Assembly (NCBI GenBank): GCA_036505615.1
Contig: DASXTB010000111.1
Location: 1-60,342, forward strand
DNA from: Acidobacteriota bacterium
GTDB taxonomy: Bacteria; Acidobacteriota; UBA6911; JACQSX01
Direction of reading: 5' to 3'
DNA length: 60,342 nucleotides
Part shown: positions 273-60,311 of the stretch, one piece after another
Layout: each line of letters opens with the position of its first letter
Numbering within the stretch: position 1 is the first letter of the stretch
Notes under the pieces: model-generated
Databases searched by the model: none
What the model was told of the DNA's origin: nothing
The model's input: the letters and a program-made list of their open reading frames with translations, nothing else
Program-made: the position numbers and the translations under genes

Positions 273-333
273 AGTTTCTACATTTTGGGAGCAGAGAGAC
301 GGCCTGAAGGCGTCTCTACAAAATGTCCAACCT
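273..333 (+). repeat. family A-like half element
   Basis: GTTTCTACATTTTGGGAGCAGAGAGACGGCCTGAAGGCGTCTCTACAAAATGTCCAAC: same stem type and the same AAAATGTCCAA tail. Confidence 0.8.
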
Positions 334-341
334 CAGACTGG

Positions 342-413
342 CACCCACACCCGGCACCCGAGACCCGGCACCCGAGACCCGACACCCGAGACCCGAAACC
401 CAAGACTCGAAAC
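342..413. repeat. heptamer array, C-rich arm only (CACCCGA/GACCCGA units)
   Basis: About 10 heptads of the GACACCC family abut the stop of the DASS gene (421-423). No complementary arm occurs inside the window. Confidence 0.85.
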
Positions 414-420
414 TTGGTTC

Positions 421-1893
421 TCACCACCATCCAAGCACCTTCCACCATGCAAATCCCACCGTCACCCAAATGAGAATATTCACCACCGACGCGCTCAATC
501 CCAGACGCCACCAGGTGCGCTGGCTGACGTAGCCTGCGCCGTAGTAAATCGGCGCCGGCGTGGTGCCATAGTGAGTCAGCGAAGCAGCCAGATTGGAGAA
601 ATACGCAAGCGATAACGCCGCCACATATTTCGGCGCTCCGGCTGTCAGTATGACGACCAAAAAAGGGAGATACATCGCCGAAGCGTGCGCCGTGATGCTG
701 GCGAAACCGTAGTGCGCGTAGAAATAAATCAGCAGCAACACTGCCAAAGCGCTCCACCACTGCCAGCCCACGGTGAGGCCGGCCGCCCGCTCGGCGAACC
801 ATCGGGTAATCCCCGTATCGCTCAGAGCCTTGGCCATCATCACCAGTCCGCCAAACCAGATAAACACGTCCCACCCCCCCCGTTCTGTTAGCACGTCTTC
901 CCACACCAGAACACCAGTGATCAGAAGCGAACAGATGCCCGCCAGCGCGATCACTGTATAGTCAATGGAATGCCAGGACCCGGTCATCCAAAGCAGCGTC
1001 AGTGCTGCGAAGACTGTCAGCATGATTCTTTCAGCCCGTGACATCGGGCCCAATCGATCCAACTCTGCTTTTGCAACCTCTGCCGCTCCGGGAGTATGCC
1101 GCACTTCGGGCGGAAAAAGCCGATAGATCAGAAATGGCACAAGCACTATGGAAAGCAATCCCGGCAAGAGCGCACCCAAGGCCCAATGGCCATAAGTAAG
1201 GTTGATGCCTGTGGCCTGCCGGGCGAACTTGGCGATCAAAACGTTCGAGGCCTGGCCTGTCAGGAACATGGCGCAGATGATCACGTCGCCCTGATACACC
1301 AGAGTCATCAAGAAGGCCCCCAGTCGTCCTGCCGTGGGTCCTGGCCTTGAGTCGTAAGCTTCAGCCAAGCTCTTGGTGATGGGAAAGGTGATGCCCCCAC
1401 AGCGAGCGCCATTGGAGGGGATGATCATGCCCAGCATCATGTCAGTGCAAACCAGAGCATAACCAAGACCGAGTGACGTGTGGCCGATGGCGCGAATAAA
1501 AAGAAAGGCGATGCGCCGGCCCAGGCCGGTTTTAATCATGCCGCGAGAAATGAAAAAGGCCGTCAGAGTAAGCCACGGAAGAGGGTCTGCATAACCGGCT
1601 AGCGCCTGTGCAGGAGACAATGTTCGCGTCAGAGCGATGGCGCTGATTCCCATCAGCACTACTGCGCCACCGGGCACAGGCTGAAGAATCAATCCCATGA
1701 TCGTAGCGACAAAAATTGCAAGCAGCCGCCACGACTCTGCTGTAATTCCGGAAGGGGCGGGCAAGAGCAGGATGGCGGAGGCGGCCAGCAGGACCCCGCA
1801 CCACTTGGCTAGGCGGATCACACCTGGGGTGAGGTGTATCGGTTCCGCCTTTCGACTCGGCGTCTCGGCTACCCGTGAAGGAATGTCATCCAT
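421..1893 (-). CDS. DASS-family anion:sodium symporter (2-oxoglutarate/malate-translocator-like permease)
   Basis: Long multi-TM ORF with DASS/CitT-like blocks (GLGRRIAFLFIRA, IIPSNGARCGGITFPI, SLTHYGTTPAPIYYG). Start moved from ORF-track 2325 to ATG 1893 (MDDIPSRV...) because the upstream 144 codons are repeat-derived and overlap the divergent gene. Confidence 0.85.
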   Translation of the reverse strand: MDDIPSRVAETPSRKAEPIHLTPGVIRLAKWCGVLLAASAILLLPAPSGITAESWRLLAIFVATIMGLILQPVPGGAVVLMGISAIALTRTLSPAQALAGYADPLPWLTLTAFFISRGMIKTGLGRRIAFLFIRAIGHTSLGLGYALVCTDMMLGMIIPSNGARCGGITFPITKSLAEAYDSRPGPTAGRLGAFLMTLVYQGDVIICAMFLTGQASNVLIAKFARQATGINLTYGHWALGALLPGLLSIVLVPFLIYRLFPPEVRHTPGAAEVAKAELDRLGPMSRAERIMLTVFAALTLLWMTGSWHSIDYTVIALAGICSLLITGVLVWEDVLTERGGWDVFIWFGGLVMMAKALSDTGITRWFAERAAGLTVGWQWWSALAVLLLIYFYAHYGFASITAHASAMYLPFLVVILTAGAPKYVAALSLAYFSNLAASLTHYGTTPAPIYYGAGYVSQRTWWRLGLSASVVNILIWVTVGFAWWKVLGWW

Positions 1894-1959
1894 ATTTGAA
1901 ACGCTCAAGCCCTGGCTGCTAGCAATGTTATTGACAATGACAGGCAGTACTAATATTAA

Positions 1960-2076
1960 GTCGATGTCGCGGTCGAAAGTCGAAAGTCGAAAGTCGAAAG
2001 TCCAAAGTCGAAAGTCAAAACTGCAAGCACTGATCTTGGACTGTGGACCTTGGACTTTGGACCTTGGACAACTGAC
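1960..2076. repeat. tandem-heptamer hairpin (GTCGAAA)n / (TTGGACC)n
   Basis: Left arm 1960-2021, 13-nt spacer, right arm 2035-2076. The arms are complementary except for about one position per heptad. Confidence 0.85.
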
Positions 2077-2083
2077 TACTATC

Positions 2084-2758
2084 ATGACTATATCAAACGC
2101 GAACTTGGACGCCTTACGCAAATTGAGTACTCCGACAGTAGCTAACGCCGTGGAGGTTTTCAATCTACGATCGCGCAGCGCCGGTTTTGCATCACCCGAA
2201 ATTCGCTGTCTTTTTCCCGATCTCGGCGTAATGGTCGGATTTGCCGCTACAGCCCGGTTTGCCGCTGAGCAAGCGCCGGCAAAAACAACGTCCCGATACG
2301 ATTTCTGGAAGTATGTCATGGGCATTCCGGAACCTCGAGTAGTGGTGATGCAGGATTTGGACCAGCCTCCGGGGATAGGCGCCTATTTTGGAGAAGTTCA
2401 ATCTTCAATCCACCGGCGCTTGCGTTGCGTGGGTGTGATAACCAACGGATTTGTGCGCGACCTGGATGAGGTGCGCGCATTGGGCTTTCAGTATTTCGCA
2501 GCCGGGGTGTGTGTTTCCCATGCTTACGTGCATTTGATTGATTTCGGCGGCCCGGTAAAGGTCGGTGGCTTGGTGGTTTGTTCGGGGGATCTGATGCATG
2601 CCGACAAGCACGGCGTGCTAAACGTCCCCAAAGAAGTAGCGCAGGATATTCCTGGGGCCGCGGCGCAAATCGCGCAACGCGAACAGCAGATCATAGCAAC
2701 CTGCAGTTCACCGGATTTTTCGCTGGAAAGACTGCGAGACGTGTACGAGTCGAAATGA
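2084..2758 (+). CDS. RraA-family protein (4-hydroxy-4-methyl-2-oxoglutarate aldolase / oxaloacetate decarboxylase type)
   Basis: 224-aa product from ATG 2084 (MTISNANLDALRKLSTPTVANAVE...). RraA-like blocks GEVQSSIHRRLRCVGVITNGFVRD and GDLMHADKHGVL. The part of ORF 1697.. upstream of 2084 crosses the repeat hairpin and the DASS gene. Confidence 0.8.
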   Translation: MTISNANLDALRKLSTPTVANAVEVFNLRSRSAGFASPEIRCLFPDLGVMVGFAATARFAAEQAPAKTTSRYDFWKYVMGIPEPRVVVMQDLDQPPGIGAYFGEVQSSIHRRLRCVGVITNGFVRDLDEVRALGFQYFAAGVCVSHAYVHLIDFGGPVKVGGLVVCSGDLMHADKHGVLNVPKEVAQDIPGAAAQIAQREQQIIATCSSPDFSLERLRDVYESK

Positions 2759-2763
2759 AAGTA

Positions 2764-2924
2764 GCCATCGGTCATCGGTCATCAGTCATCGGTCATCGGT
2801 TATTGCTAGGAGCTTCGGTCTTCGCAGATTGTTGTTCTGAGACATCTACTTACCGATCATATTTTTGAGAGATAACCAGTCACGATCGCCGATGACCGAT
2901 GACTGATGACTGATGACTGATGAC
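2764..2924. repeat. tandem-heptamer hairpin (CATCGGT)n / (ACCGATG, ACTGATG)n
   Basis: Arms 2764-2800 and 2875-2924, with a ~75-nt unique spacer. Confidence 0.9.
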
Positions 2925-2932
2925 TATTAGCA

Positions 2933-2967
2933 GGCTGAGAGCTGACAGCTGTGAGCTGAGAGCTGAA
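2933..2967. repeat. orphan heptamer array (GCTGAGA)5
   Basis: GCTGAGAGCTGACAGCTGTGAGCTGAGAGCTGA ends 3 nt before the ATG at 2970. The same unit recurs at 20008-20047 and 43532-43599. Confidence 0.85.
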
Positions 2968-2969
2968 TT

Positions 2970-3263
2970 ATGTTAACTCACATCGTCTTGTACAAGCCAA
3001 AGCCGGGCGTCGCAAGAGAGCAGATCGAAGTACTCTTGCGCGAGGCGCGGACGCGGCTTCGCCAAGTACCGGGCGTGGCCAACCTCAAGGCAGGAACCTC
3101 AATTTATAAGGAAGACCCTTATCAATGCGCTCTAGTAATGTACTTTGAAGATATTGCCGCGCTGGATCGATATCGCGTACATCCGGTTCATGTAAAGTTT
3201 GTCGAGGAAGTCGTCAACCCGGTAGTCGACGAAGTGCGACGATTGGATTACGTCGAAGAATAG
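2970..3263 (+). CDS. Dabb-family stress-responsive alpha/beta-barrel protein
   Basis: 97-aa ORF; the full length fits the Dabb pattern (THIVLYKPKPG ... YRVHPVHVKFVEE). Confidence 0.8.
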   Translation: MLTHIVLYKPKPGVAREQIEVLLREARTRLRQVPGVANLKAGTSIYKEDPYQCALVMYFEDIAALDRYRVHPVHVKFVEEVVNPVVDEVRRLDYVEE

Positions 3264-3270
3264 AAAAGAG

Positions 3271-3373
3271 GTCGTAAGTCGCAGGTCGAAAATCGAAAGT
3301 CAGGGGTCGCTCGGCCGAGGGCGAGCAAGGCTCGAAGGGTTGCACTTTCGACTTTCGACCTGCGACTTGCGAG
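3271..3373. repeat. tandem-heptamer hairpin (GTCGNAR)n
   Basis: Arms 3271-3304 and 3341-3373 are about 90 percent complementary; 36-nt spacer. Confidence 0.9.
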
Positions 3374-3394
3374 CTGAGACTAGGACAATCAGCC

Positions 3395-4450
3395 ATGACC
3401 GTTGACCGCTTCCCGATTCCAAGTGAATCGCTCACGGCTTTCTGCGTTTCCTGTTTCAAGAAGCTCGGCCTTTGCGATGAGGACGCCAGGATTACCGCCG
3501 ACAATCTGATTTTTGCCAACCTTCGGGGTGTCGACTCTCACGGTGTGATTCGACTGAAAGTGTATGCGGACCGCTTGCGCGCCGGCGGGACCAATCCCCG
3601 GGCCGTTCCCAAGGTGTCACGAGAGGATCGAACCTGTGCGCTGATCGATGCCGATAACGGCGTGGGGCAGGTAGCCAGTGCTGTGGCGATGAAACTTGCC
3701 ATTTCTAAGGCCGAAGCAAACGGAATCGGCTGGGTGAGTGTGACAAACAGCAACCATTTTGGAGCGGCCGCCTTCTACGCCATGATGGCGCTCCCGTACA
3801 ACATGATCGGCTTAGCCTTGACCAACGCGAGCGCGACCATGGCTCCCAGCGGAGGTCGCGAAGCGCGGCTGGGCAACAACCCGCTCGGTATTGCCGTCCC
3901 GGCTGGAAAGAAACCGCCAGTGGTTCTGGATATGGCCACCGGAGCCGTCGCCAGAGGAAAAATCTTCATTGCACAGCAGGAAAGAAAAAAGATTCCTACT
4001 ACTTGGGCACTCGATAAGAGCGGTGTACCGACCGATGACGCCGATGCTGCCGCCGAAGGACTGATACAACCCCTGGGAGGCTACAAGGGATACGGTCTGA
4101 GCCTGCTAATCGATCTCTTTACAGGAGTGCTGTCAGGCAGCGGATTTTCAACCCACGTTGGTCAGATGTACAAGGATCTGGGCGTGCCTACGCGTTCAGC
4201 GCACGCCTGCGCTGCCCTGCTCATTGACAGGTTCATACCTATTTCCGAATTTCGACAGCGTGTCGATGAGATCATCGATATGATGCAAACCTGCCCGCGC
4301 GCGGCGGGCGTCGATCGCATCTACGTTCCTGGGGAAATCGAGCATGAGACCGAACTACATCGAAGAGCGCACGGCATTCCGCTGAGTGGGGCCCTGAAGA
4401 ATGAACTGGTCGCTCTGGGGTCAGAACTGGGGGTTCAATTCCCGCTTTAG
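3395..4450 (+). CDS. Ldh_2-family oxidoreductase (type-2 malate/L-lactate/sulfolactate dehydrogenase family)
   Basis: Family blocks DSHGVIRLKVY, NSNHFGAAAFYA, GGYKGYGLSLLIDL. Confidence 0.85.
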   Translation: MTVDRFPIPSESLTAFCVSCFKKLGLCDEDARITADNLIFANLRGVDSHGVIRLKVYADRLRAGGTNPRAVPKVSREDRTCALIDADNGVGQVASAVAMKLAISKAEANGIGWVSVTNSNHFGAAAFYAMMALPYNMIGLALTNASATMAPSGGREARLGNNPLGIAVPAGKKPPVVLDMATGAVARGKIFIAQQERKKIPTTWALDKSGVPTDDADAAAEGLIQPLGGYKGYGLSLLIDLFTGVLSGSGFSTHVGQMYKDLGVPTRSAHACAALLIDRFIPISEFRQRVDEIIDMMQTCPRAAGVDRIYVPGEIEHETELHRRAHGIPLSGALKNELVALGSELGVQFPL

Positions 4451-5560: not shown

Positions 5561-8500
5561 ATGAGACGACTTGAAATTCGCGCATTAATGGCACTGATCG
5601 TGCTCTTCATACCAGGTTGGCCGACCTTGGGCTGGGCCCAAGTAACCACGGCAACCCTTTACGGAATTGTTCGTGATCCAACGGGCTCCGTAATTCCGGG
5701 AGCGGCGGTAACAATTACGCACCAAGGTACCGGAGCAGTAAAGAAAACGATCACCAGCGATACGGGCGAGTTTGTTTTTGATTTCCTGCACGTAGGTTCG
5801 TACACACTCAAGATTGAGATGCCGGGCTTCAAGACCTCTGTGAGTCAAGGCATTGACCTGGCGGCAGGTCAGGAAGTGCGCCATACGTACGATCTGCAGG
5901 TGGGCGAAGTGGCCGAATCGGTAACGGTGCAGGGTGGGGCTACGCTGGTAAACACCGTGTCGGCCGAGCAGCGTGAGAGCATGAATTCGCTACAGGTCAT
6001 GGAGCTGCCCCTCTCTCGAAGGAATGTCACCAATATTCTTAGGCTCTCTTCAGGAGTGGATGTTGGCGGCGGCAGCGTCCGGATCAACGGCCAAGGTAAG
6101 AGCGGCGCCGGCGTCACAGTGGACGGCACGGATGCCAACGCAAACCCATCCGAGGGCCGGGCGATGGAACAATACGGAGGTCGGAACTACATCGACGTGA
6201 TGAGCATCGAGGCGGTGCAGGAGGTACAACTCCTGCGAGGGATCCTGGCGGCCGAGTACGGTGGCGTGATCAGTGGACAAGTAAACCTGATCAGCAAATC
6301 GGGAACCAACGCTTGGCATGGGAGCCTGTTTGAAAATTATCGATCCCATCTCTTCAGCGCTCGCGACCCGTTTCAGACGAACAGAAGGCCGGATGGCTCC
6401 CTGCTCCCCAGGAATCGAGAGGTTTTTAACCAGTTTGGAGGCGCTTTCGGCGGTCCGATCCTTCGAAACAAAGCCTTCTTCTTCGGGACCTATGAAGGTT
6501 ATCGCGAATCGAGGTTCCAGCGCGTGACGGGCACCGTCCCCACGCCGAAATTGAGAGGTGAAATCCTGCGAGCTTTGCCGTTTCCCGAGACGAAGATCCT
6601 CATGGACGCGATCCCTGAGCCCTCTGTCCCGATTGACGCCGATCGCGGACGATTTGAGGGGGCGGGAAAGCGCGAGAGCACGGAAAATCACTTTATAGTG
6701 AAAGGCGATGTTCTGGTTACTGAGGCCAGCAATCTTTCGGTCACGTACACCAGGAATCGTCCTTTTGGTCTGGATCCCAGCTTTTTCCTCAATGGCGCAA
6801 ATGACCGCACCTATGATTACGCGCAGGATCGACTTACCGCTCAGTACGTCATCGGCAGTAGCCGCTGGACCTCGGAAACCCGGTTTGGTTACAACCATCA
6901 GGATATGGAGCGGCTGGATCAGTTTTTCACATTCACCGATCCTAAGAAAAAAGAAAGCATCGAGTGGCAACGTCGGGTTCCTCGGCTATCGATACAAGGG
7001 ATCGGCGGCTGGGGTGGCGCCGAAGTTTGGCAAATGGAAGGCACGACTTACTCATTCGATCAGAAGATCGGGCGCCAGTTGGGACAACACCTTTTCAAAC
7101 TTGGTGGCCGTTATGTGCGTTACGGCGGCAGCCGCACCAACCCGGAGAACCCATCGTACGCTTTCAACAACAAAGAAGACATGTCTGCCAATATCCCGGG
7201 CACGGTCAATCACACGTTTGGATCTGCCGGTCCTCATAAATCGCGCATGTATGAGTTCGGCTTCTTTGCCCAGGACGATTGGCGGGTGAACCCCAGGCTG
7301 GTCTTGAACCTCGGACTCCGCTATGACTTTTACTCCAATAATGTCGTCAAGCCAACCGGGCCTGTCCCTGTTGCTATCAAGAACCTCTCTCCTCCCAGAG
7401 ATTGGCAAAAGTTCGACTTTGGGCCGCCCCGTCCTTTCGACAATCCCACTGATAATGATCCGGTGAATTTCAGTCCCAGATTCGGTTTTGCGTACAACCC
7501 GGACGGAAAAGGCAGGACCGTCGTTCGCGGAGGTTTTGGAATCCTGTTTGCGGCCCACGTGCCGGCGCTGTTGAGGCAGAGCGTCGCGCATCCGGTTGTG
7601 CCCTTCCGAGTAATCTGGAGTAAGAACGAGGCCCAGCGACTGGGGGTGCGGTATCCCACCTATGCTGAAGAGGCCCTGTCCATTGCCGAGCGGGACGTGG
7701 CTGCAAGCGGACGGATACTTATTTTCTCCGTGCTCAACCCAAAGCTTCAGAATCCCTACACCATGAATTACCAGCTAAACGTTCAGCGCGATTTGAGCCG
7801 AGATCTCATGTTTGAAGTAGGCTACGTCGGTGTGCGCGGGGTGAAGTTTCCGCTGCATCGCCGCTTTAACTTGCCCGACCGTGTGACCGGCGAGCGTCCC
7901 AATCCACTGATTATACCGGGCGGCTACTACGTCGACAATTCAGAGAGCACCGTTTATCACTCTCTGCAGAGTTCCTTAAGAAAGCGCTTTTCCCAAAACC
8001 TGTCCTTTGACGCGCACTACACCCTGGGTAAGGCGCTCGCCTTCGCTGGTGGAGACGTCGGCGTCTATTACGGCACGGATGCCAACGATCAGATCCAGGA
8101 CTTCTTCAACCTCCGCATTGATAGGGGACCGGCAGTTGGAGACGTCACTCACCGCTTTGTCGGCGACTGGATTTACCAACTGCCTTACCTGACGAATTGG
8201 GGAAATCCTTTCTTCAGGCACGTGCTCGGAGGCTGGCAGTTCTCGGGAATTCTTGTGGGCCGTAGCGGCACTCCCGCTTTAGTGACCCAGGGTTGCGCAA
8301 GTGCGTACCACTGCAGGCCGGACTTTCTGGGTGGAGATCCGATTGTCAGTGATTGGAACAAAAACGAAATCACCACCGGCTGCCGCCCGGGCGTGCACTG
8401 CGATGTGCAATACCTGAACGTGGCTGCCTTCGCGCCGGTGCCGTTGACCAAGGCCACTGGAATTGCCATAAGACCTGGAACTGCCGGGAAGAGTCTAATC

Positions 8501-14740: not shown

Positions 14741-14805
14741 GACAATTCTTTCGCACAGGCGACTGACCACGGACAACGGACAACTGACAATCTAAAGGAA
14801 GGTAC

Positions 14806-18219: not shown

Positions 18220-18269
18220 TCAAAACACTGTGAAATCCCCCGCTTTCGCCAAAATTTGGGCGCTGAGCT

Positions 18270-18398
18270 CGATCACGTTCACGTTCACGAGCACGTCAAC
18301 GTCCACGACTACGACCAATCGAATCGTGAGCGATTGTGTATTCTTCGTCCGCGTAGGCATGGACGTGCTCGTGAACGTGGTCGTGATCGGCTTTTATT
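18270..18398 (+). terminator. long repeat-hairpin followed by U-tract (putative intrinsic terminator of the ligase gene)
   Basis: Arms 18270-18316 and 18356-18390 are complementary (CACGTT-type hexamer arrays). They are followed directly by CTTTTATT. Confidence 0.45.
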
Positions 18399-20007: not shown

Positions 20008-20047
20008 GCTGGCTGAGAGCTTAGAGCCGAGAGCTGAGAGCTGAGCA
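20008..20047. repeat. (GCTGAGA)-type heptamer array
   Basis: GCTGGCTGAGAGCTTAGAGCCGAGAGCTGAGAGCTGAGCA. Not complementary to the neighbouring GGGAGAA array. Confidence 0.9.
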
Positions 20048-24005: not shown

Positions 24006-24294
24006 AGTCACACGTCAGCAAGTCAACAAGTCGCAAGTCAACAGGTTAGCAGGTTACAAGTTAGCAGGTTAGCAGGTTGGTAAGTCGAAGCTCGAAATGA
24101 TCTCCTCAAAGCTGAGTAAGCCCTTGCTTCTCGGCATCGCGAGGAGGAATTCTATCATGCTTAAACCCCGGACTATCAGGCGGAAGTGATGATGTGAAGG
24201 GTTACCTATACTGCCAAGTTTGCCAACTTGCGGAGCTGGAACCTGCCAACCTGCAACCTGTAAACCTATAAACTGGCAAACCCACAAACCTGCA
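24006..24294. repeat. tandem 7-8 nt repeat hairpin (GCAGGTTA / AAGTCAAC units)
   Basis: Left arm 24006-24092 and right arm 24211-24294 (AACCTGC-type units); ~120-nt spacer; imperfect complementarity. Confidence 0.8.
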
Positions 24295-24659: not shown

Positions 24660-24667
24660 AAAGGAAG

Positions 24668-25027
24668 TTTCGGGTTTCGGGTGCCGGGTGTCGAGTGCCG
24701 GGTGTCGGGTGCCGGGTGTCGGGTGTCGGGTTTCGGGTGCCGGGTGTCGGGTGTCGGGTATTGGGTGTCGGGTATTCGGTTTTGGGCTTAACGCCCTTCA
24801 GGTTATCCTAAACTTGGAACCCAACACGTGATTCAGCACCCAATACCTAAGACCCAATACCTAAGACCCAATACCCGACACCCGACACCCGGCACCCGAC
24901 ACCCGGCACCCGAAACCCGACACCCGACACCCGGCACCCGACACCCGACACCCGACACCCGGCACCCGAAACCCGAAACCCGACACCCGACACCCGACAC
25001 CCAACACCCGGCACTCGAGACCAATAC
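24668..25027. repeat. tandem-heptamer hairpin (GGGTGTC/GGGTGCC)n / (GACACCC/GGCACCC)n
   Basis: About 17 heptads at 24668-24786, a ~50-nt spacer, then about 27 complementary heptads at 24837-25027. It fills the whole gap between two minus-strand genes. Confidence 0.95.
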
Positions 25028-25783
25028 CTATCTAGCACAGGTTAACGCCCGCCCTCCGTCAATACTGTAGGTTGCGCCGGTGATCCAACTGGCCTTATCG
25101 GAGGCAAGAAAGAAAATCAGTTCGGCGATCTCATCGGGGCGGCCGACGCGCCCCAGCGGATGTGTCGTCTTGCTGCGCTCGAGGAAAGCGGCATATAGGT
25201 CCTCGTTCATGCCTCCAGCGCGGTGAAGGTTAGTCCGAGTCACACCGGGGTTGACGGCATTGACTCGAATTCCTTTGGCAGCGAGCTCCAGGGCACTGCA
25301 GCGGGTCAATTGATCAAGCGCCGCCTTGCTGACGCAATAAGCGAGGACTCCGGGGAACGAACGCAGGCCATTGACGCTGGAAACATTGACGATGTTGCCG
25401 CGCGTTTTTTCCAGGTGCGGGAGCGATTTTTGCATCAGCCAGAATATAGAGCGAACATTAATCTGCATCATCTCATCCCAATCCGGTAGTGAGGTGTTCT
25501 CAATGGTGCCTGATCGCAGAATCCCAGCGGCATTGACTAGAACATCCAATCTGCCGAGATTCTTCACGACGTCGTCGACCAGGTTTTCCACTTGATCCAG
25601 CTGCGTTAGGTCTGCCGGAAATGACTTGAAGTTCGAGATTTCCTGCTGCAGCCCTTTTGTGTAGTCAGGATGGCGGCTCACACCGGCCACCTGGAAGCTG
25701 TTGTTGGAGAACAGGCGAGCCGTGGCCAGGCCAATGCCGCTGCTCGTGCCCGTGACGAGTACGACTTTTCGTTTTTCATCCAT
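25028..25783 (-). CDS. SDR-family oxidoreductase
   Basis: VTGTSSGIGLA Rossmann motif, NAAG, catalytic YCVSKAAL. Confidence 0.9.
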   Translation of the reverse strand: MDEKRKVVLVTGTSSGIGLATARLFSNNSFQVAGVSRHPDYTKGLQQEISNFKSFPADLTQLDQVENLVDDVVKNLGRLDVLVNAAGILRSGTIENTSLPDWDEMMQINVRSIFWLMQKSLPHLEKTRGNIVNVSSVNGLRSFPGVLAYCVSKAALDQLTRCSALELAAKGIRVNAVNPGVTRTNLHRAGGMNEDLYAAFLERSKTTHPLGRVGRPDEIAELIFFLASDKASWITGATYSIDGGRALTCAR

Positions 25784-35557: not shown

Positions 35558-36667
35558 ATGGTTCACGAACTGCGGGCGGCCGTGATAGGCGCGACCGGCT
35601 ATTCCGGAAGGGAACTAGTGCGATGGCTGCAACAACATCCTGTGGCGAAGCCCGTCTTGCTCACCGGTTCCAGGAAAGCTTTGCCGGAGTTGCGCCGCTT
35701 TGTCTGCTCTCTTCCGGCCGATGTGTTTGTCCCGTTTCGGTACGGCGAGAATTTCCTTGAGGAGTTGCTGGATGTCGTCGCCCTCAGGAAGGTGGGCGTG
35801 GTGTTTCTGGCCACTGAGATTGAAAGTGCCGTGGGATTGGCACCCGAGCTCCTGCAGCAGGATGTGGTGGTGATCGATCTCAGTGCCGGCTTTCGTATAA
35901 AAAACGAGAAGCTCTACCGCGAATGGTATTCGCTGGTGCATCCGTGTCCCGAACTCCTGGAGCGAGCCGTCTATGGCCTGTCGGAATACCATCGGGAAGC
36001 AATCACCGCCGCCTCGCTGATTGCAAATCCGGGGTGTTACCCTACATCGGTTCTGCTGGCGTTGTTGCCGGCGCTCGAATTCATCGACTGGGAAGCGCCA
36101 GTGATTTGCGACAGCAAGTCCGGCCTGACCGGCGCGGGCCGGAACGCCGATTATATATTCGCCGAAATCAACGAAAACTGTCTGGCGTACAAACTGGGAA
36201 ATCATCGCCATATCCCGGAAATGCTTCAGGGCCTGGGCAAACCCGTGGGAGATGGAATTCCGTTCGTGTTCGCGCCGCATCTGGTTCCGATGAATCGGGG
36301 AATCCTCAGCACTTGTTATTTCCGCGCAAAAGTCGGCGTAAGCGAAGCCGGTTTGCGCCGGCAATATGAAGAGAAATACAAAGGGTCTCCCTTCGTCACG
36401 TTGCTGGCGCCGGGTGTGTTGCCCCAGGTTCAAATGGTGGCACATACCAATCGTTGTGAAATGGCGTTGTTTGTCCATGGCGATTCGCGCATGATGACGG
36501 TGGTTTCGGCTATCGACAACTTGGTAAAGGGAGCCGCCGGTCAGGCGATACAGAATATGAATATAAGGTTTGGGCTGGACGAGGCGGCCGGACTCACGGG
36601 AACGGCACTCGGTGGCCGGCAAGAGGGAGAAGGCAGAAAGCAGAAGGCAGAAAGCAGACGGCAGTAG
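35558..36667 (+). CDS. argC: N-acetyl-gamma-glutamyl-phosphate reductase
   Basis: [14 protein letters not shown], active-site [24 protein letters not shown] 35558; ORF-track codons upstream are REP-derived. The last ~15 codons and the stop lie inside a tandem-repeat array. Confidence 0.9.
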
Positions 36668-37025
36668 GAAGAAGGCAGGAGCCAGGAGGCAGGAGGCAGG
36701 AAGCAGGAGGCAGGAGGCAGAAGGCAGGAAGCAGGAGGCAGGAAGCAGGGTGCAGAAGGCAGAAGGCAGAAGGCCAGAGGGAGAAGGGAGAAGGCAGGCG
36801 CTAGAGATACTAAGTAGGATGCAATGGCCGGAACGCATAGTGGAAAGTGGCAGACAGGAACCGGAAAGCAAACTGCAAGATGTAACGCCCACAAACAGCT
36901 TCCTGCCTCCTGCTTCGTGCCTCCCGCCTTCTGCCTCCCGCCTCCTGTTTCCTGCCTCCTGCTTTCTGCCTCCTGCTTCCTGCCTCCTGCCTTCTGCCTC
37001 CTGCCTTCCGCTTTCTGCCTTCTCT
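36621..37025. repeat. tandem-heptamer hairpin (GGCAGGA/GGCAGAA/AGCAGGA)n / (TCCTGCC/TTCTGCC)n
   Basis: Left arm 36621-36800 (about 25 heptads), 96-nt spacer, right arm 36897-37025 (about 18 heptads). The argC stop (36665-36667) lies inside the left arm. The argB ATG is 11 nt after the right arm. Confidence 0.95.
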
Positions 37026-37035
37026 TACAAAAAAG

Positions 37036-43464: not shown

Positions 43465-43599
43465 GCTGCCAGTTCTCAGCTTTCAGCCAAGAAGCCCAGA
43501 ATCAAGCCCCTGGAGACGAATCTCATTGATAGGGCTGATGGTTGATGGCTGACATCTGATGGCCGAGAGCTGATGGCTGACAGCTGAGAGCTGAGAGCT
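43465..43599. repeat. heptamer hairpin with unequal arms (GCTGAGA/GCTGATG units)
   Basis: Short arm GCTGCCAGTTCTCAGCTTTCAGCC (43465-43488) is complementary to the long array at 43532-43599. That array abuts the ferredoxin stop. Confidence 0.75.
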
Positions 43600-45054: not shown

Positions 45055-45206
45055 TTCTCTAGTTTCAAGTTTGTATTTTGTCCCTTGTCACTGGACCGTC
45101 GCCATAAAGTGGTTTGCCTAGAGAGTCAGCTTTGCGCACAACGGGCTTCGTCCAGAGGTACAACGGACGACTGACCACTGACAACGGACAAAGTAAAACT
45201 CGGAAC

Positions 45207-45623
45207 CTAGAGTCGGTACAGCATCCAATATACGATAACGCCGGTGACGGAAACATACATCCAGAGTGGAAAAGTCCAGCGAGCGATTTTCTTGTGCTTT
45301 TGAAAATCTCCCCTGAGAGCTCGGCTTACGGTAATTAGTGCCAGCGGAACAATTATCACAGCCAGAAGCGTGTGGCTGAAGAGAATAGACAGATAAACGG
45401 AGCGAATCACGCCGGACTTCTGGAAATGCTTGGAACCGGCGTAATAGTGATAGGTCAGGTAGGAAATTAGAAAGAGCGTTGAAGAACAAAAAGCTGATCC
45501 CATGAGGAAACGGTGCGCGCTGATTTTCCCACTGCGGATGCAAAAGTAGCCCACGGCCAGAAGAATGGCGCTACTGGCGTTGAGGATGGCATTCACCGTC
45601 GGCAGGTTTTGAATCGGTATCAT
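45207..45623 (-). CDS. DUF420-family membrane protein (cytochrome-oxidase-associated family)
   Basis: 138 aa, four TM helices, DUF420-like sequence (NAILNASSAILL..G...I......HR..M). Located directly downstream of ctaA-ctaB. Confidence 0.8.
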   Translation of the reverse strand: MIPIQNLPTVNAILNASSAILLAVGYFCIRSGKISAHRFLMGSAFCSSTLFLISYLTYHYYAGSKHFQKSGVIRSVYLSILFSHTLLAVIIVPLALITVSRALRGDFQKHKKIARWTFPLWMYVSVTGVIVYWMLYRL

Positions 45624-45629
45624 ATTGAG

Positions 45630-46249
45630 TGTCAGTTGTTGGGTGTCGGGTATCGGGTGTCAGGTGACGGGTGTTGGGTGTTGGGTGTCGGGTGTCGGGT
45701 GTCGGGTCGAGTGTCGGGTGACGGGTATCGGGTGTCGGGTGACGGGTATCGGGTGTTGGGTGTCGGGTGTCGGGTATCGGGTGTCAGGTATCGGGTGTCG
45801 GGTGACAGGTCTCGGGTGTCAGGTATCGGGTGTCGGGTGTCAGGTAAGGGGTGACGGGTGTCAGGTGTCAGGTTTCGGGTGTCGGATGCATCAGTCACCG
45901 AAAAGACTCATATCAACAGATTGAAAGATGTTTGCCCAACACCCGTCACCCGATACCCGATACCCGTCACCCAACACCCGTCACCCGATACCCGTCACCC
46001 GACACCCGATACCCGTCACCCGTCACCCAACACCCGTCACCCGTCACCCAACACCCAACACCCAACACCCGTCACCCGATACCCGTCACCCGTCACCCGA
46101 CACCCGATACCCGTCACCCGTCACCCGTCACCCAACACCCGTCACCCGTCACCCAACACCCAACACCCAACACCCAACACCCAACACCCAACACCCGTCA
46201 CCCAACACCCAACACCCAACACCCAACACCTGACACCCAACACCCAACG
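45630..46249. repeat. giant tandem-heptamer hairpin (GGGTGTC family), about 36 + 45 units
   Basis: G-rich arm 45630-45885, ~50-nt spacer, C-rich arm 45935-46248. It occupies the entire ctaB-DUF420 intergenic gap. Confidence 0.95.
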
Positions 46250-46254
46250 TCAGT

Positions 46255-47172
46255 TCATGCCTTGTCCACGACCATTAAAACCAGCAGCAGCGGCAGATAA
46301 ACGACGGAAGCCTTCAGCAATTTGCGCGCGTCTCCTGTAGTGCGTGATTGGGCTACTCGGAAGCCATAAAAGACGAAAAGCGAACCGAGCAGTAGAGCTC
46401 CCGACACGTACACCAAACCTGTCAATCCCAATGCCGACGGCAACAAGCTGATCGGAATAAGTGCCATGGTGTAAATCAGGATCTGTTGTCCGGTAACGAA
46501 ACCATCCCGGTCTTCGAGCGGAAGCATGCGAAAACCGCCGCGCTCGTAATCCTCGCGATACATCCAGGCAATGGCGAGAAAATGCGGAAATTGCCATAGA
46601 AACAGAATAAAAAACAGAGACCAGGCCTTCAGGCTCAGTTCTCCAGTCGCCGCCGCCCACCCGATCAGAGGAGGCGTCGCTCCGGGAAATGCGCCAACCA
46701 GCGTGCACAAAGATGTTTTCTGCTTCAAGGGTGTGTAAACAAACAAATAGCTCGCCAGGACCGCAAGGGCGAGAAAACATGCCAGAACGTTGACTAGATA
46801 TGCCAGATAGGCGAGACCTGCTGCTGAAAGAATTATCCCAAAGATCAACGCGCTGGACGGTTCCAGGCGCCGCGCAGGGAGCGGGCGGTTTTCGGTGCGC
46901 CGCATCATCTTGTCCGTGGCTCGCTCCAGAAACTGATTGAGGACGGCGGCGGCACCCGCGGTCAACGCCGTCCCCGTCAACGTATGCAAGAGCAGCCGCA
47001 GGTTCATGGGCCCGCGGGAACCGAGATAAAAGCCAACGACCGTGGTAATCAACACCAGGGTAGTGACGCGCGGCTTGGTCAGCTCAACGTAATCGGCCAA
47101 TTGCAGCCGTCCGATGTCCCAAATGCTGGGGGGCGCGGAAATTATTTGCTCGTTACTAAGTCGTTTTGACAA
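46255..47172 (-). CDS. ctaB: protohaem IX farnesyltransferase (haem O synthase)
   Basis: UbiA-type blocks YVELTKPRV and DKMMRRTENRPLP. TTG start; position uncertain. Confidence 0.9.
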   Translation of the reverse strand: MSKRLSNEQIISAPPSIWDIGRLQLADYVELTKPRVTTLVLITTVVGFYLGSRGPMNLRLLLHTLTGTALTAGAAAVLNQFLERATDKMMRRTENRPLPARRLEPSSALIFGIILSAAGLAYLAYLVNVLACFLALAVLASYLFVYTPLKQKTSLCTLVGAFPGATPPLIGWAAATGELSLKAWSLFFILFLWQFPHFLAIAWMYREDYERGGFRMLPLEDRDGFVTGQQILIYTMALIPISLLPSALGLTGLVYVSGALLLGSLFVFYGFRVAQSRTTGDARKLLKASVVYLPLLLVLMVVDKA

Positions 47173-47595: not shown

Positions 47596-48588
47596 TTAAG
47601 TAGTCTGTTCCCAATTTCCATGGTCCCCAATTTCCATCATTCGGGTCCATTTGCGGCCAATGTTCGCCCCTGGGTATCGCCTGTGAATTCTCAAAGCGAG
47701 CAACAGTGCAGAGGCCAAAATGAGCGCGCCCAAAGCAACGTGAGCCGTAGAGCTCCAGACGTACTCGAAGATCGGCTGAGGAGCGCGCAAATTCTCCTTC
47801 TTGATAAAGAAGGTTGCCGTCCCCAAGAGTGCCTGGCCCACCACCAGACCCAGCAGAAAGAGCGAATGCCGATTCAGCTCGCCGGGGTAAAACCTTACCG
47901 TTATTACTGCAAGCCGCGCGGCCAACAGTACAACCACGGCAGCCCCGAGGATGTGCGAACCGATCCCCAAAGCATTATGCCGGTAGCCCGCGCCCAGTAT
48001 CAGCTGCGCGTAAACGGCAGCAACCAGGCAAAGGCTGATCCCACGAAGGCTGGGACGGTCTTCGGGATCCGTCTCAGACTGCTGGCCGGCCCACTTGTCG
48101 CCCGTTACCACCGCCGTAGAGATCGTTAGGCAAAAGAATGCCTGAGCCAGCGAAGCGTGGGCCATGGAAACTGCGGGCGGCAGGAAGTACAGTACGGTAA
48201 TTCCGCCCAGCAGCCCCTGTAGGATCACCGTAGCCATCGCCGTCCATCCGAGTCTGCGTACCCATCTGCGGGGCTCCTTCACTGAAATCCAGACTGCCAG
48301 TATGACGGTGAGCATTCCCACGAAAGCAGCAACCATGCGATGGCTATGCTCGTAGAGAACCCCGCCGGGCATCTCAGGCAACCATTTACCGAAGGAAAGC
48401 GGCCAATCTGGAACTGCAAGTCCGGCATCGTTGCTGGTCACAAGGCCCCCGGCGATGATCAAAAAGAAAGTGCAGACCGCGGTGAAGCAGGCGAAGCGGT
48501 GTAACGATTTCGGATTGCGGATTTCGGATTGCGGATTATTCGATTTCGGATTGCGGATTTCGGATTGCGGATTAAGTCGTGAAGGCAT
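47596..48588 (-). CDS. ctaA: haem A synthase (COX15/CtaA family)
   Basis: Eight-TM COX15/CtaA-type ORF (YEHSHRMVAAFVG, GAGYRHNALG). ATG 48588 (or TTG 48603). The first ~30 codons are the repeat arm (NPQSEIRNPKS twice). Confidence 0.85.
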   Translation of the reverse strand: MPSRLNPQSEIRNPKSNNPQSEIRNPKSLHRFACFTAVCTFFLIIAGGLVTSNDAGLAVPDWPLSFGKWLPEMPGGVLYEHSHRMVAAFVGMLTVILAVWISVKEPRRWVRRLGWTAMATVILQGLLGGITVLYFLPPAVSMAHASLAQAFFCLTISTAVVTGDKWAGQQSETDPEDRPSLRGISLCLVAAVYAQLILGAGYRHNALGIGSHILGAAVVVLLAARLAVITVRFYPGELNRHSLFLLGLVVGQALLGTATFFIKKENLRAPQPIFEYVWSSTAHVALGALILASALLLALRIHRRYPGANIGRKWTRMMEIGDHGNWEQTT

Positions 48589-48743
48589 TTGATTTGCTCT
48601 CAATTTCCATCTCCACTCGAACCGAACTTAAAGGAAGCTAGGCTAAAGTCCACAATCGATCAATCCGAAATCCGAAATCCGCAATCCGCAATTGGGCTAT
48701 CCGCAATCCGAAATCCGCAATTGGGCAATCCGCAATCCGAAAT
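48505..48743. repeat. tandem 7-8 nt repeat hairpin (CGGATTG/CGGATTT)n / (AATCCGC/AATCCGA)n
   Basis: Left arm 48505-48574 (inside the ctaA 5' end), ~80-nt spacer, right arm 48657-48743 (ends 4 nt before the cupredoxin stop). Confidence 0.9.
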
Positions 48744-49643: not shown

Positions 49644-49982
49644 GAGTTGCCGGTTTCTGGTCCCCAGTTGCCAGTTCCTAGTTGCCAGTCGCCTGTAATT
49701 TTGAAATCGGAACTACGGATCCATGATCTCACTGCAGAGGCGCAGAACCTGTAAAAGAATCAGAACCGCGCCCGTCAGGGCGCGTGCGGAGAATCTTTGT
49801 CAATTCCCGGCGCCTGCAAAACGCTTTGAACTGCCAGCAACTTAGAAAGTTTACGGCGAATCTTGTTACATTCTCCGCGCGCGCCCTGACGGGCGCGGTT
49901 CTGATTCTTGCTGTGGTTCTGCGGTGAATCGTACTACCGATTGCAAAGTTACAGGCAACTAGGAACTGGAAACTGGCAACTG
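49644..49982. repeat. nested double palindrome
   Basis: Outer arms 49644-49703 and 49944-49982 (CAGTTGC/CAGTTCC units). Inner inverted repeat 49742-49803 / 49862-49922 is about 60 nt and highly similar; each copy carries its own GCGCCCGTCAGGGCGC hairpin. Confidence 0.9.
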
Positions 49983-55164: not shown

Positions 55165-55276
55165 TGCAGGTTGCAAAGTTAGCAAGTTAGCAGGTTCGCA
55201 AGTTAACAACTTGGCACGTTAGGGGTCTCTGGCTCGCGGACCTGCTAACTTGTTAACCTGCAAACCTGCAAACAAG
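55165..55276. repeat. tandem 7-8 nt repeat hairpin (GCAGGTT/GCAAGTT units)
   Basis: Arms 55165-55215 and 55240-55276, located between the Rieske stop and the cytochrome b start. Confidence 0.85.
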
Positions 55277-56175: not shown

Positions 56176-56530
56176 ATTTGTTCAAAACCTCACCTTTTCC
56201 TGCGTCAGGAGATTTCGTTGTGACCGAGTCAGTCTTTGTTCGCTTGGAACTGCTTTCATGCAGCGCAAACATTCCACCGACGATTTTTGTGGATTTGGCG
56301 GAGCGGGATCGCGTTTCCTCCCATCGGTGTCCCGATAGGCAAATGGCGGGTGGTCATCATGTCTGAAGATATAAATTCAGCCTGCAGTATCACCTTCGGT
56401 CGATTGCCTCCAGACCTTCGGTGGGTCACACAGATAATTAAGGTGCCCGGCGATCCAACCACTTCTATTCCACATCGTTGCAGTGGATACGGCTTGGTTT
56501 TACTTCTATGACAGCACAAAAGTCAAGATA

Positions 56531-56741
56531 GTCCGTTGTCCGTTGTCAGGTCGCAGGTAGCAAGTCGCAGGTCGAAAGTCGCAAGTCGCAGGTCGAAAGT
56601 CGCAGGTCGAAAGTCGATTGGCTGGCGTTTGAGTGGGAACCCACGAGTGAAATTTGAAAATTGGATTTAGAGCTTCCCACTTTCGACTTTCGACTTTAGA
56701 CCTTCGACTTTCGACCTTCGACTTTCGACCTTCGACTTTCA
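56531..56741. repeat. tandem-heptamer hairpin (GTCGCAG/GTCGAAA)n / (CTTTCGA/CCTTCGA)n
   Basis: Left arm 56531-56616 (starts with GTCCGTT x2), ~60-nt spacer, right arm 56678-56741, ending 12 nt before the stop of the CMD-like gene. Confidence 0.9.
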
Positions 56742-56752
56742 GCCTAGGATCA

Positions 56753-59976: not shown

Positions 59977-59985
59977 CTCGTTGTA

Positions 59986-60074
59986 GCAGACTAACTCCGA
60001 GCAGACTAACTCCGGAGCAGACTAACTCCGCGTCTCACGTTTGAGCGCGAGCAGACTAACTCCGGACTAACTCC
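59986..60074 (+). repeat. short direct repeats (GCAGACTAACTCCG x4, ACTCCGC.TCTCA)
   Basis: GCAGACTAACTCCG occurs at 59986, 60001, 60017 and 60051. Confidence 0.85.
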
Positions 60075-60311
60075 GCATCTCAACTCCGCATCTCACGTTT
60101 GAGCAGGTAATTTGCCATTTTGACGCTGACTTACCGCTCTGTAGCGGTCGTTTTCGATCTCCCTTTCCCAACAAATTTTACAGTCCCGATCACGCATCTC
60201 AACTCCGCATCTCACGTTTGAGCAGTTAATTTGCCATTTTGACGCTGACTTACCGCTCTGAAGCGGTCGTTTTCGATCTCCCTTTCCCAACAAATTTTAC
60301 AGTCCCGATCA
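60075..60311 (+). repeat. two tandem copies of a 118-nt unit (period 119)
   Basis: 60075-60192 and 60194-60311 differ at two positions. Each copy contains an ACCGCTCTGNAGCGGT hairpin. Confidence 0.95.

Follow-up and report, generated by a model that had tools for sequence, protein, structure and literature searches.

The gap between ctaB and the adjacent DUF420 gene in a 60,342-nt stretch of DNA from an Acidobacteriota bacterium (contig DASXTB010000111.1; the whole stretch is referred to here as the window) belongs to a lineage-wide class of intergenic elements in which tandem 7-nt units are laid out as two inverted arrays, and it is the largest of them. The gap is 631 nt long (window 45624-46254) and consists of about 80 heptads in two inverted arrays with a spacer between them. 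What defines the class is the 7-nt periodicity together with the inverted pairing, and the potential to form G-quadruplexes (G4s) is incidental, because many gaps are filled by period-7 arrays with other, often G-poor units. We put at roughly one half the probability that the element represents a small intercistronic stem-loop that was expanded by slippage and whose base keeps the ctaB stop codon beside the DUF420 start codon.

Anatomy of the gap and the class to which it belongs

Tandem Repeats Finder placed the left arm of the element at 45629-45885 (period 7, 37.0 copies, 77% matches, score 290) and the right arm at 45935-46245 (period 7, 44.4 copies, 84% matches, zero indels, score 328), with the complementary heptads of the latter spanning 45935-46248, or 44 units. 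The two arms are separated by a non-repetitive spacer of 49 nt (45886-45934). Read on the - strand, which is the coding strand of both neighbouring genes, the right arm becomes the 5' arm of the predicted mRNA hairpin, G-rich in the mRNA sense and built mainly of GGGUGUU and GGGUGAC, the spacer its predicted loop, and the left arm its C-rich 3' arm. Degenerate heptads continue up to the ctaB stop codon, directly after which the outermost unit or units (46246-46254, - strand) read ACUGACGUU in the mRNA sense, and to within 3 nt of the DUF420 start codon, where the degenerate terminal units GAGTGTC AGTTGTT (given for the + strand; 45624-45640, feature on the - strand) abut the ATG. A preliminary description of this DNA, prepared from the letters alone, had treated the whole gap, from stop to start, as one element of about 36 and about 45 heptads around a spacer of about 50 nt, with a G-rich array followed by its C-rich complement in the operon mRNA; the measured values (37 units, 44 units and 49 nt) and the - strand sequence agree with this. 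Four consecutive GGGTN3 units occurred 79 times in the window and not once in 100 shuffles, and the heptad content of the gap is beyond chance.

The two arms draw on the same units, GGGTGTC, GGGTATC, GGGTGAC and GGGTGTT, in different order and proportion, as had been described, and a fifth common variant, AGGTGTC, can be added. When the arms were split at GGT in the register GGTNNNN, with the right arm read on the - strand, the left arm yielded GGTGTCG (9), GGTATCG (6), GGTGTCA (6), GGTGACG (4), GGTGTTG (3) and a few irregular units, and the right arm yielded GGTGTTG (17), GGTGACG (17), GGTATCG (6), GGTGTCG (2) and GGTGTCA (1). Lag analysis located one irregular 12-nt unit that shifts the register within the left arm. 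Complementarity between the arms was 75-82% in many registers, the best of which extended over 181 nt at 82%, and there was no unique mirror order. Since the unit strings of the two arms share just a single 5-unit block, the arms are not mirror copies of each other, and the differences in composition and order fit the earlier proposal that the arms have slipped independently.

The upstream cistron, ctaB (46255-47172, - strand; stop codon 46255-46257), encodes a haem O synthase of the UbiA family (Pfam PF01040, E = 2.6e-58), and alignments with CtaB homologues reach residue 304-305 of 305. The downstream cistron is the DUF420 gene (45207-45623, - strand; Pfam PF04238, E = 2.2e-45, profile positions 1-130 from residue 7), whose ATG at 45623 is sound because the profile begins at residue 7 and the homologue alignments begin at residues 1-7; no Shine-Dalgarno (SD)-like motif is present before this ATG (45624-45640). 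A COX15/CtaA gene is located further upstream of ctaB. Because the two genes share a strand and neither a sigma-70-like promoter nor a terminator-like site was called between them (45624-46254), the array is most likely transcribed as part of the operon mRNA. No Rfam match at the gathering threshold was obtained in the whole window. The open reading frames (ORFs) inside the arrays, which the preliminary description had regarded as artefacts, gave no Pfam match and were rejected as coding sequence for this reason; they stay open because the heptads carry no stop codon in any frame.

The element had been presented as singular, which does not hold within the window or beyond it. A filter for period-7 self-similarity was passed by 1277 window positions, compared with 0-39 for the other periods from 3 to 12, and about ten further paired arrays of period 7 or 8 were found, for instance with the non-G4 units AGGCAGA, CGGTCAT, GATTTCG and AAGTCGA. 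At least nine heptad unit families occur within 60 kb, four of which recur at two or three loci. Canonical G4 motifs in the window were found only in GGGT-type arrays and in one GAAGGGA array, with 23 of the 24 motifs falling in heptad arrays. Each locus has its own private spectrum of heptad variants, and the spacers of nine paired elements in the window showed no significant mutual similarity with blastn-short; a shared mobile-element core was considered and rejected because the spacers are unrelated. In a survey of the class, which covered the window and about 165 fetched acidobacterial loci, 158 heptad arrays were counted, and 59% of them had an inverted partner no more than 450 nt away. 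The density of arrays was about 20 times higher in gaps than in long ORFs and peaked at 1.24 per kb in co-directional gaps, whereas divergent gaps had 0.62 and convergent gaps 0.53 per kb. Arrays in the survey had a median length of 43 nt, and the arms of the 631-nt gap were the longest of all. Furthermore, AT-rich heptad hairpins occur at the same kind of position in relatives, as described below.

Predicted folding and the same gap in relatives

In the mRNA sense (- strand), the 631 nt were predicted to fold at -512.9 kcal/mol, compared with an average of -288.7 kcal/mol for 20 shuffles (z = -29.4), with about 269 pairs including 29 G.U pairs. The + strand gave -447 kcal/mol with 236 pairs and 4 G.U pairs, and the + strand folded as single-stranded DNA gave -244.7 kcal/mol (z = -19.7). 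At the sequence level both arms are canonical G3N4 arrays, as had been pointed out: in the sense-strand arm there are 44 intact GGG tracts and 10 canonical motifs (G3N1-7) that do not overlap, with a G4Hunter score of 1.32, and the other arm contains 27 GGG tracts and 3 canonical motifs, with broken G-tracts in 10 of its approximately 37 units. Even when G4 energies were turned on in ViennaRNA, the long duplex was retained as the minimum free energy (MFE) structure, and a single G4 appeared, confined to those units of the longer 5' arm that are in surplus. The ground state of the gap RNA is predicted to be a hairpin of about 270 bp, not a string of G4s. The choice between hairpin and G4 had been put forward as the defining question for this element, which was not borne out, since siblings have units that are incapable of forming G4s. 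Nor is this question new, because the competition between the two structures in paired G-rich heptamer arrays has already been discussed for Xanthomonas (PMC4692102).

In the MFE fold, the outermost unit or units after the ctaB stop codon are unpaired or at the base of the stem, and the last base before the DUF420 AUG is paired. The outermost units are predicted to pair in the 631-nt gap as well as in the 272- and 65-nt versions of the gap described below. From the 5' base of the stem to the ctaB stop codon, the distance is 7-13 nt in the 65- and 631-nt versions and about 24 nt in the 272-nt version, and the SD-less AUG of DUF420 lies 0-1 nt from the 3' base in all three. With the outermost units paired, the stop codon of ctaB and the start codon of DUF420 are predicted to be neighbours at any arm length.

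The best CtaB match had 65% identity among the GTDB representative genomes and 61% in the scan of metagenome contigs, and among the CtaB matches listed in the genome scan all except one (L078) were from Acidobacteriota. Exact-protein look-ups with the full-length CtaB and DUF420 found nothing on record, and the closer CtaB relatives came from a protein search instead of from the scans of genomes and metagenome contigs. At ten loci in which ctaB is directly followed by the DUF420 gene, the gap was 0-114 nt long, often with a small stem-loop. For instance, the relative with 65% CtaB identity (L001) has a 74-nt gap (6472-6545) that is a hairpin of 8-nt units (-33.5 kcal/mol), and ordinary GC-rich hairpins were found in the ctaB-DUF420 gap of three others (L098, L157 and L127). 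A relative with 88% CtaB identity (L162; GCA_030157145.1) has the same gene order and a gap of 272 nt, in which about 17 GGTGTC[A/G] units are followed by a spacer of about 60 nt and then by about 10 complementary units that reach the ATG. Alignment of its spacer with that of the window scored 12-15, inside the range of shuffles (mean 11.9, maximum 25), and homology or inversion between the two spacers was therefore rejected. In another relative (L165; 69% CtaB identity, GCA_016191055.1), the genes are in the same order, CarboxypepD_reg, ctaA, ctaB, DUF420 and HEAT (293-4375), with a ctaB-DUF420 gap of 21 nt that carries a GGAG motif and with overlapping ctaA and ctaB, and there were zero period-7 arrays in 9 kb; therefore, the repeat load was gained, or kept, only in part of the clade. 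Judging from these comparisons, the unit family and the layout appear to be inherited in a genus-level clade while the copy number changes.

In Pyrinomonadaceae/Blastocatellia, the gene after ctaB is coxB instead. Here three to five (T/G)AATNGT units very often come immediately behind the ctaB stop codon, succeeded by a spacer, complementary units, AAGGAG and the ATG, and 21 of 48 such gaps folded with z <= -3. Within a locus the variable base N of the unit matches between the arms (overlap 0.744 vs 0.493 when permuted, p = 0.0004, 12 loci), and arm complementarity in Pyrinomonadaceae appears to be actively kept, by selection or by copying between the arms.

A different length of the gap was found in a contig from a JGI metagenome (L161; sample 3300036862) that encodes an identical CtaB. 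This contig aligns to window 49390-46219 with 99.87% identity over 3172 nt without gaps, the arrays at 48506-48743 included, and resumes at window 45651-45510, so that 567 nt (46218 to 45652) are skipped. Its gap (3137-3201 of the contig) is 65 nt long and lacks a spacer, with four G-rich units joined through ACCC to about three C-rich units; it forms a perfect 28-bp stem (-48.9 kcal/mol), and the junction removes exactly the interior of the hairpin. Because the words at the junction are absent from the window sequence, L161 is not a simple graph collapse of that sequence. The difference could be due to a deletion of the hairpin interior in real molecules, to a polymerase jump during library preparation, or to an over-expanded assembly of the window. 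It is very improbable that the true locus is the 65-nt hairpin of L161 and that the 631 nt are an over-expansion or a mis-join, as the near-perfect match of L161 up to and including the neighbouring arrays, followed by the abrupt skip, might imply. In the window version the 49-nt spacer is unique and the variants follow one another in an irregular, non-periodic order, neither of which an assembler would make up; L162 shows arms and a spacer independently; a Logan contig of L162 breaks off within the array, which is usual for short-read assemblies at repeats that they fail to resolve; and arms of 257-314 nt are too long to be bridged by short reads, so that a rare deletion molecule or a hairpin-jump artefact would be the sole path that could be assembled. 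For these reasons, we favour a real deletion or a polymerase jump at the library stage over an over-expanded window assembly, and the precision with which the junction excises the hairpin interior and leaves a perfect stem also speaks against a mis-join. The gap is real in this sequence, and its length of 631 nt is provisional until it is confirmed by spanning reads. Across the graded relatives, the ctaB-DUF420 gap measures 21, 65, 74, 272 or 631 nt.

Proposed origin, possible role and alternative explanations

The starting point of the element may have been a short intercistronic spacer, as the gaps of 0-114 nt in relatives would suggest, after which each arm would have lengthened through slippage during replication, 7 nt at a time, and through duplication of several units at once. 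Pairing in any register is open to a stem built from tandem units and this, together with the G-runs, would lead to polymerase stalling and to further slippage. In the operon mRNA the array would fold into one imperfect hairpin instead of a string of G4s, and we propose that this hairpin would act as an ordinary intercistronic stem-loop. For example, it could be a barrier or a processing site that determines how stable the upstream mRNA segment is in relation to the downstream one. Alternatively, the ribosome terminating on ctaB may melt the base of the stem and thereby expose the DUF420 start, resulting in translational coupling; such melting is plausible because in some relatives ctaB and DUF420 overlap or are spaced by 21 nt. 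Under this hypothesis, the free drift in length would be explained because the adjacency of stop and start at the base of the stem is independent of arm length, and the extreme length would be a tolerated by-product and not an adaptation.

Several considerations weigh against the expanded stem-loop. The account of the gap on the RNA side is a matter of prediction throughout. RNase III and SbcCD-type nucleases should be drawn to a double-stranded RNA stem of about 270 bp and to inverted DNA arms of about 260 bp. A 65-nt allele, or assembly, occurs at 99.9% flank identity, and because this version exists it is unlikely that the length of 631 nt is itself needed. Furthermore, the hairpin appears to be dispensable in relatives, to judge from L165 and from the ctaB-coxB gaps, 13 of 48 of which are shorter than 60 nt; the short ones that were inspected (L014, L017, L022 and L031) were hairpin-free. 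The better folding of the sense strand, which was also seen in L162 (-152.5 vs -134.5 kcal/mol) and L161 (-48.9 vs -36.9 kcal/mol), was not found throughout: among 26 ctaB-coxB hairpins, 17 folded better in sense and 9 in antisense (Wilcoxon p = 0.55), and the window elements of known orientation were mixed, with the element between argC and argB favouring antisense by 9 kcal/mol. The sense advantage of the 631-nt gap rests on five amplified variant types, three of which are C-to-T on the coding strand and two on the other strand, and strand-biased C-to-T mutation could be behind it. The asymmetry between sense and antisense folds was therefore rejected as proof of a constraint at the RNA level, because it is not general and involves few variant types; an explanation based on the replication strand was rejected as well, because the GC skew of the window is too weak (+0.016).

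A strong rival, although we consider it to be on the unlikely side, is that the arrays are a pure by-product, that is, neutral slippage DNA that the lineage has not purged, that is found in gaps only because it would be lethal elsewhere, and that has no role in RNA or protein. Copy number and even unit sequence vary freely between relatives, arrays are present in divergent gaps too, and an excess of heptamer simple sequence repeats (SSRs) in bacteria has been ascribed to polymerase slippage (PMC4692102, PMC4679880), all of which would be in keeping with neutrality, as would the array-free state of the syntenic 69% relative, the 13 of 48 ctaB-coxB gaps that are too short, the 65-nt version between nearly identical flanks and the lack of an RNA-strand preference in the sense/antisense test. 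Neutrality would leave aside, however, that the hairpins begin at a stop codon and end just before a ribosome-binding site or start codon, that array density is two-fold higher in co-directional gaps, that the same few heptad families recur at separate loci, and that the arms co-vary within loci across many Pyrinomonadaceae genomes (p = 0.0004), although template switching could bring about such covariation without selection.

It is improbable that the gap works as a G4/i-motif array, in which the G-rich arm, transcribed first, would fold as RNA G4s or as G4s in the non-template DNA strand and regulate transcription, translation or replication, with the complementary arm being only an antagonist. 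Siblings of the same architecture (AGGCAGA, CGGTCAT, GATTTCG and AAGTCGA), as well as the AATNGT-type units in relatives, have no G-runs, the predicted duplex persists with one G4 in the unpaired surplus of the longer arm, and 10 of about 37 units in the other arm have broken G-tracts. The observations that argue for G4s are the 44 GGG tracts, 10 motifs and G4Hunter score of 1.32 in the sense arm, the location of 23 of 24 canonical window motifs inside heptad arrays, the presence of both GGGT-type pairs among the three longest arrays of the window, and the placement of the G-rich arm on the sense strand directly after a stop codon in all three GGGTGNC elements of the window; this placement is shared with Xanthomonas, where similar heptamers form G4 in vitro, and for the Xanthomonas repeats no function has been found either (PMC4692102). 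A Rho-independent terminator or a mobile element, such as an insertion resembling a transposable element of the miniature inverted-repeat type (MITE) or a doublet of repetitive extragenic palindromic (REP) sequences (REPIN), is hardly credible. The element is a strong stem-loop after a stop codon, and its inverted repeats and spacer are reminiscent of REPIN doublets and MITEs, but there is no U-tract after the stem, the AUG follows at once (AUGAUACCG), zero terminator-like sites were called in the gap, and arrays are not enriched in convergent gaps. Near-identical copies with internal sequence, as in REP/REPIN or MITE families, were not found; the spacers are dissimilar among the nine paired elements, the variant spectrum is private to each locus, and there was no Rfam match.

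Going beyond the expanded stem-loop that we prefer, one may speculate, and we regard this as unlikely, that paired heptad arrays are a length-tolerant device for operon punctuation in Acidobacteriota. Coupling or processing would be preserved as the arms expand and collapse, and hairpin-mediated collapse, such as from 631 to 65 nt, would give heritable and reversible variation in the expression ratio of the neighbouring cistrons.

The closest known relatives of the gap are the GGGAATC inverted pairs of Xanthomonas and the hairpins of short tandemly repeated repetitive (STRR) sequences in cyanobacteria, and what is new here is the unit sequence, the phylum and the extreme size. In Xanthomonas, 186 arrays of 2-26 units (mode 4) and 70-75 convergent inverted pairs per genome were reported; the arrays lie preferentially between aligned ORFs, where the G-rich strand is the sense strand just behind a stop codon and the antisense strand just ahead of the next ORF, G4 formation was seen in vitro, competition between stem-loop and G4 was noted, and a function was not found (PMC4692102). 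The heptamer SSR unit of Nostoc is GGGGA(C/T)T (Rehm et al. 2015, PMC4692102). As in both of these bacteria, the unit described here has 7 nt with a G3 tract and a 4-nt loop. As in Xanthomonas, the arrays are intergenic between aligned ORFs, two arrays converge on opposite strands (here with 82% complementarity over 181 nt), the G-rich sense arm lies close to the preceding stop codon (9 nt after that of ctaB, compared with within 50 bp in Xanthomonas) with the C-rich arm ending at the AUG, and related genomes retain the position and type but differ in the length (about 17 and 10 units in L162). In contrast, the units belong to a GGGTGTC family and are neither GGGAATC nor GGGGA(C/T)T, the host belongs to the Acidobacteriota, the arms have 37 and 44 units compared with a mode of 4 and a maximum of 26 in Xanthomonas, the arrays fill the whole gap from stop to start codon, and the same genome uses many other unit families, G-poor ones included, in one architecture, with G4 formation here being a sequence-level prediction.

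For the 7-bp STRR hairpin between hupS and hupL, a role in transcript stability or translational coupling has been proposed (PMC2670836). The arrays described here are similar to the cyanobacterial STRR sequences in that several 7-bp tandem families are spread over the intergenic regions of one genome, and in that some STRR hairpins lie between co-transcribed genes, as the gap lies between same-strand genes for which we infer co-transcription; the phylum and the unit sequences differ, and the STRR hairpins are far smaller. REP elements and bacterial interspersed mosaic elements (BIMEs) in E. coli act as mRNA stabilisers. Intercistronic stem-loops that set operon stoichiometry through selective RNA processing and stabilisation have been described (PMC4423207). 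With these the gap shares a stable stem-loop between two cistrons of one operon and the mechanism that we propose for it, which is a functional analogy only, and it differs from them in that they have tens of base pairs and are not made of tandem units. Self-pairing repeats stall replication and change length, as is known from trinucleotide-repeat expansion and from long inverted repeats in E. coli. The 65-nt gap of L161, which lacks exactly the hairpin interior, is what hairpin bypass would give in palindrome-stimulated deletion; in contrast to the trinucleotide repeats and the E. coli inverted repeats, the gap is made of a 7-nt unit in two opposed arrays. SSRs involved in phase variation lie in the promoter or reading frame of a variable surface or restriction gene, where changes in the units switch expression; the gap lies between two housekeeping genes for haem/oxidase assembly, outside ORFs and with no promoter-like site, but its length does differ among L161, L162 and the window. 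A search of the literature, limited in coverage, found no description of heptamer repeats in Acidobacteria, Blastocatellia or Chloracidobacterium.

That bacteria have heptamer repeats in excess has been on record since the STRR reports of around 1990 and the genome surveys of 2007, and to our knowledge neither a function nor a mechanism has been established for it. The lineage described here is unusually well suited to this question. The use of many unit families in one architecture makes it possible to separate the contribution of pairing from that of G4s, a positionally conserved hairpin after ctaB shows covariation between its arms across a bacterial family, and a single locus occurs at five lengths in graded relatives. 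In practice, such arrays also cause short-read assemblies to break or collapse, and they give rise in annotation to spurious ORFs and to spurious N- or C-terminal extensions, as for the N-terminus of ctaA and the C-terminus of argC.

Sibling arrays, annotation effects and other repeats nearby

The sibling arrays of the window were located with Tandem Repeats Finder and by analysis of the sequence, with their neighbouring genes assigned by Pfam. A TCGGGTG/CACCCGA inverted pair of the GGGTGNC family (24663-25025) immediately follows the stop codon of an SDR gene (25028-25783, - strand) and was predicted to fold at -297 kcal/mol on the - strand and -274 kcal/mol on the + strand. A single array of the same family (343-418), also recovered by pattern search and G-rich on the - strand, lies directly after the stop codon of a Na/sulfate symporter gene. 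The gap between argC and argB is filled by an AGGCAGA/TCTGCCT inverted pair (36615-37026) with zero G4 motifs, and within the same gene cluster as ctaB a GATTTCG/GATTGCG array and its complement (48506-48743) lie between the CarboxypepD_reg gene and ctaA and are identical in L161 (ungapped alignment). Inverted pairs of CGGTCAT and AAGTCGA were found at 2755-2937 and 56527-56748, respectively. Period-8 pairs are located at 24006-24294 (arms 24006-24078/24236-24294) and 55166-55273 (arms 55166-55222/55240-55273), and the latter occupies the entire gap between two - strand genes.

The families that recur within the 60 kb are GGGTGNC at three loci (343-418, 24663-25025 and 45629-46248), GCTGAGA at three (2934-2966, 20012-20045 and 43565-43599), AAGTCGA at three (1972-2020, 3340-3372 and 56562-56740) and ACGGACA at two (14765-14790 and 45160-45191). 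Such recurrence at separate loci would be unexpected if the arrays arose from independent random seeds.

Gene calls are affected at two of these elements. In the ctaA ORF (47596-48603), the first approximately 30 residues, with NPQSEIRNPKS occurring twice, are translated heptads (48506-48573), and the first ATG of ctaA (48588) lies within the spacer of the upstream heptad hairpin. The ctaA gene calls on L161 (330 aa) and L162 (345 aa) likewise start inside arrays, and the N-terminus is either an annotation artefact or a genuinely array-encoded tail. Similarly, the argC ORF enters the AGGCAGA array by about 50 nt (36615-36667) before its stop codon, and its last approximately 17 codons are repeat-derived.

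Other repeats were found nearby. Downstream of the Na/sulfate symporter gene lies a separate small repeat family of three REP-like hairpins of the form GAGACG...CGTCTC (121-146, 167-206 and 293-332), with AAAATGTCCAA(A/C)C behind the second and the third. Inverted hexamer arrays (CACGTN)n followed by GGCTTTTATT occur in the window (18265-18395), in a 75% relative (L164, 1190-1310) and in the 88% relative (L162, 12060-12600); the element is nearly identical in the window and the 75% relative, the 88% relative has several copies of it, and it looks like a conserved family of terminator-like hairpins made of 6-nt units. A heptad pair AGTTGCC/GGCAACT (49645-49693/49954-49985) flanks a 260-nt core, which has a long inverted repeat of its own and identical CGCGCCCTGACGGGCGCG hairpins on both strands (49767-49784 and 49880-49897), making a nested hairpin. 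At the end of the window, a 119-nt unit is tandemly duplicated with 98% identity (60074-60311) and is preceded by 15-16-nt repeats of AGCAGACTAACTCCG (59985-60095).

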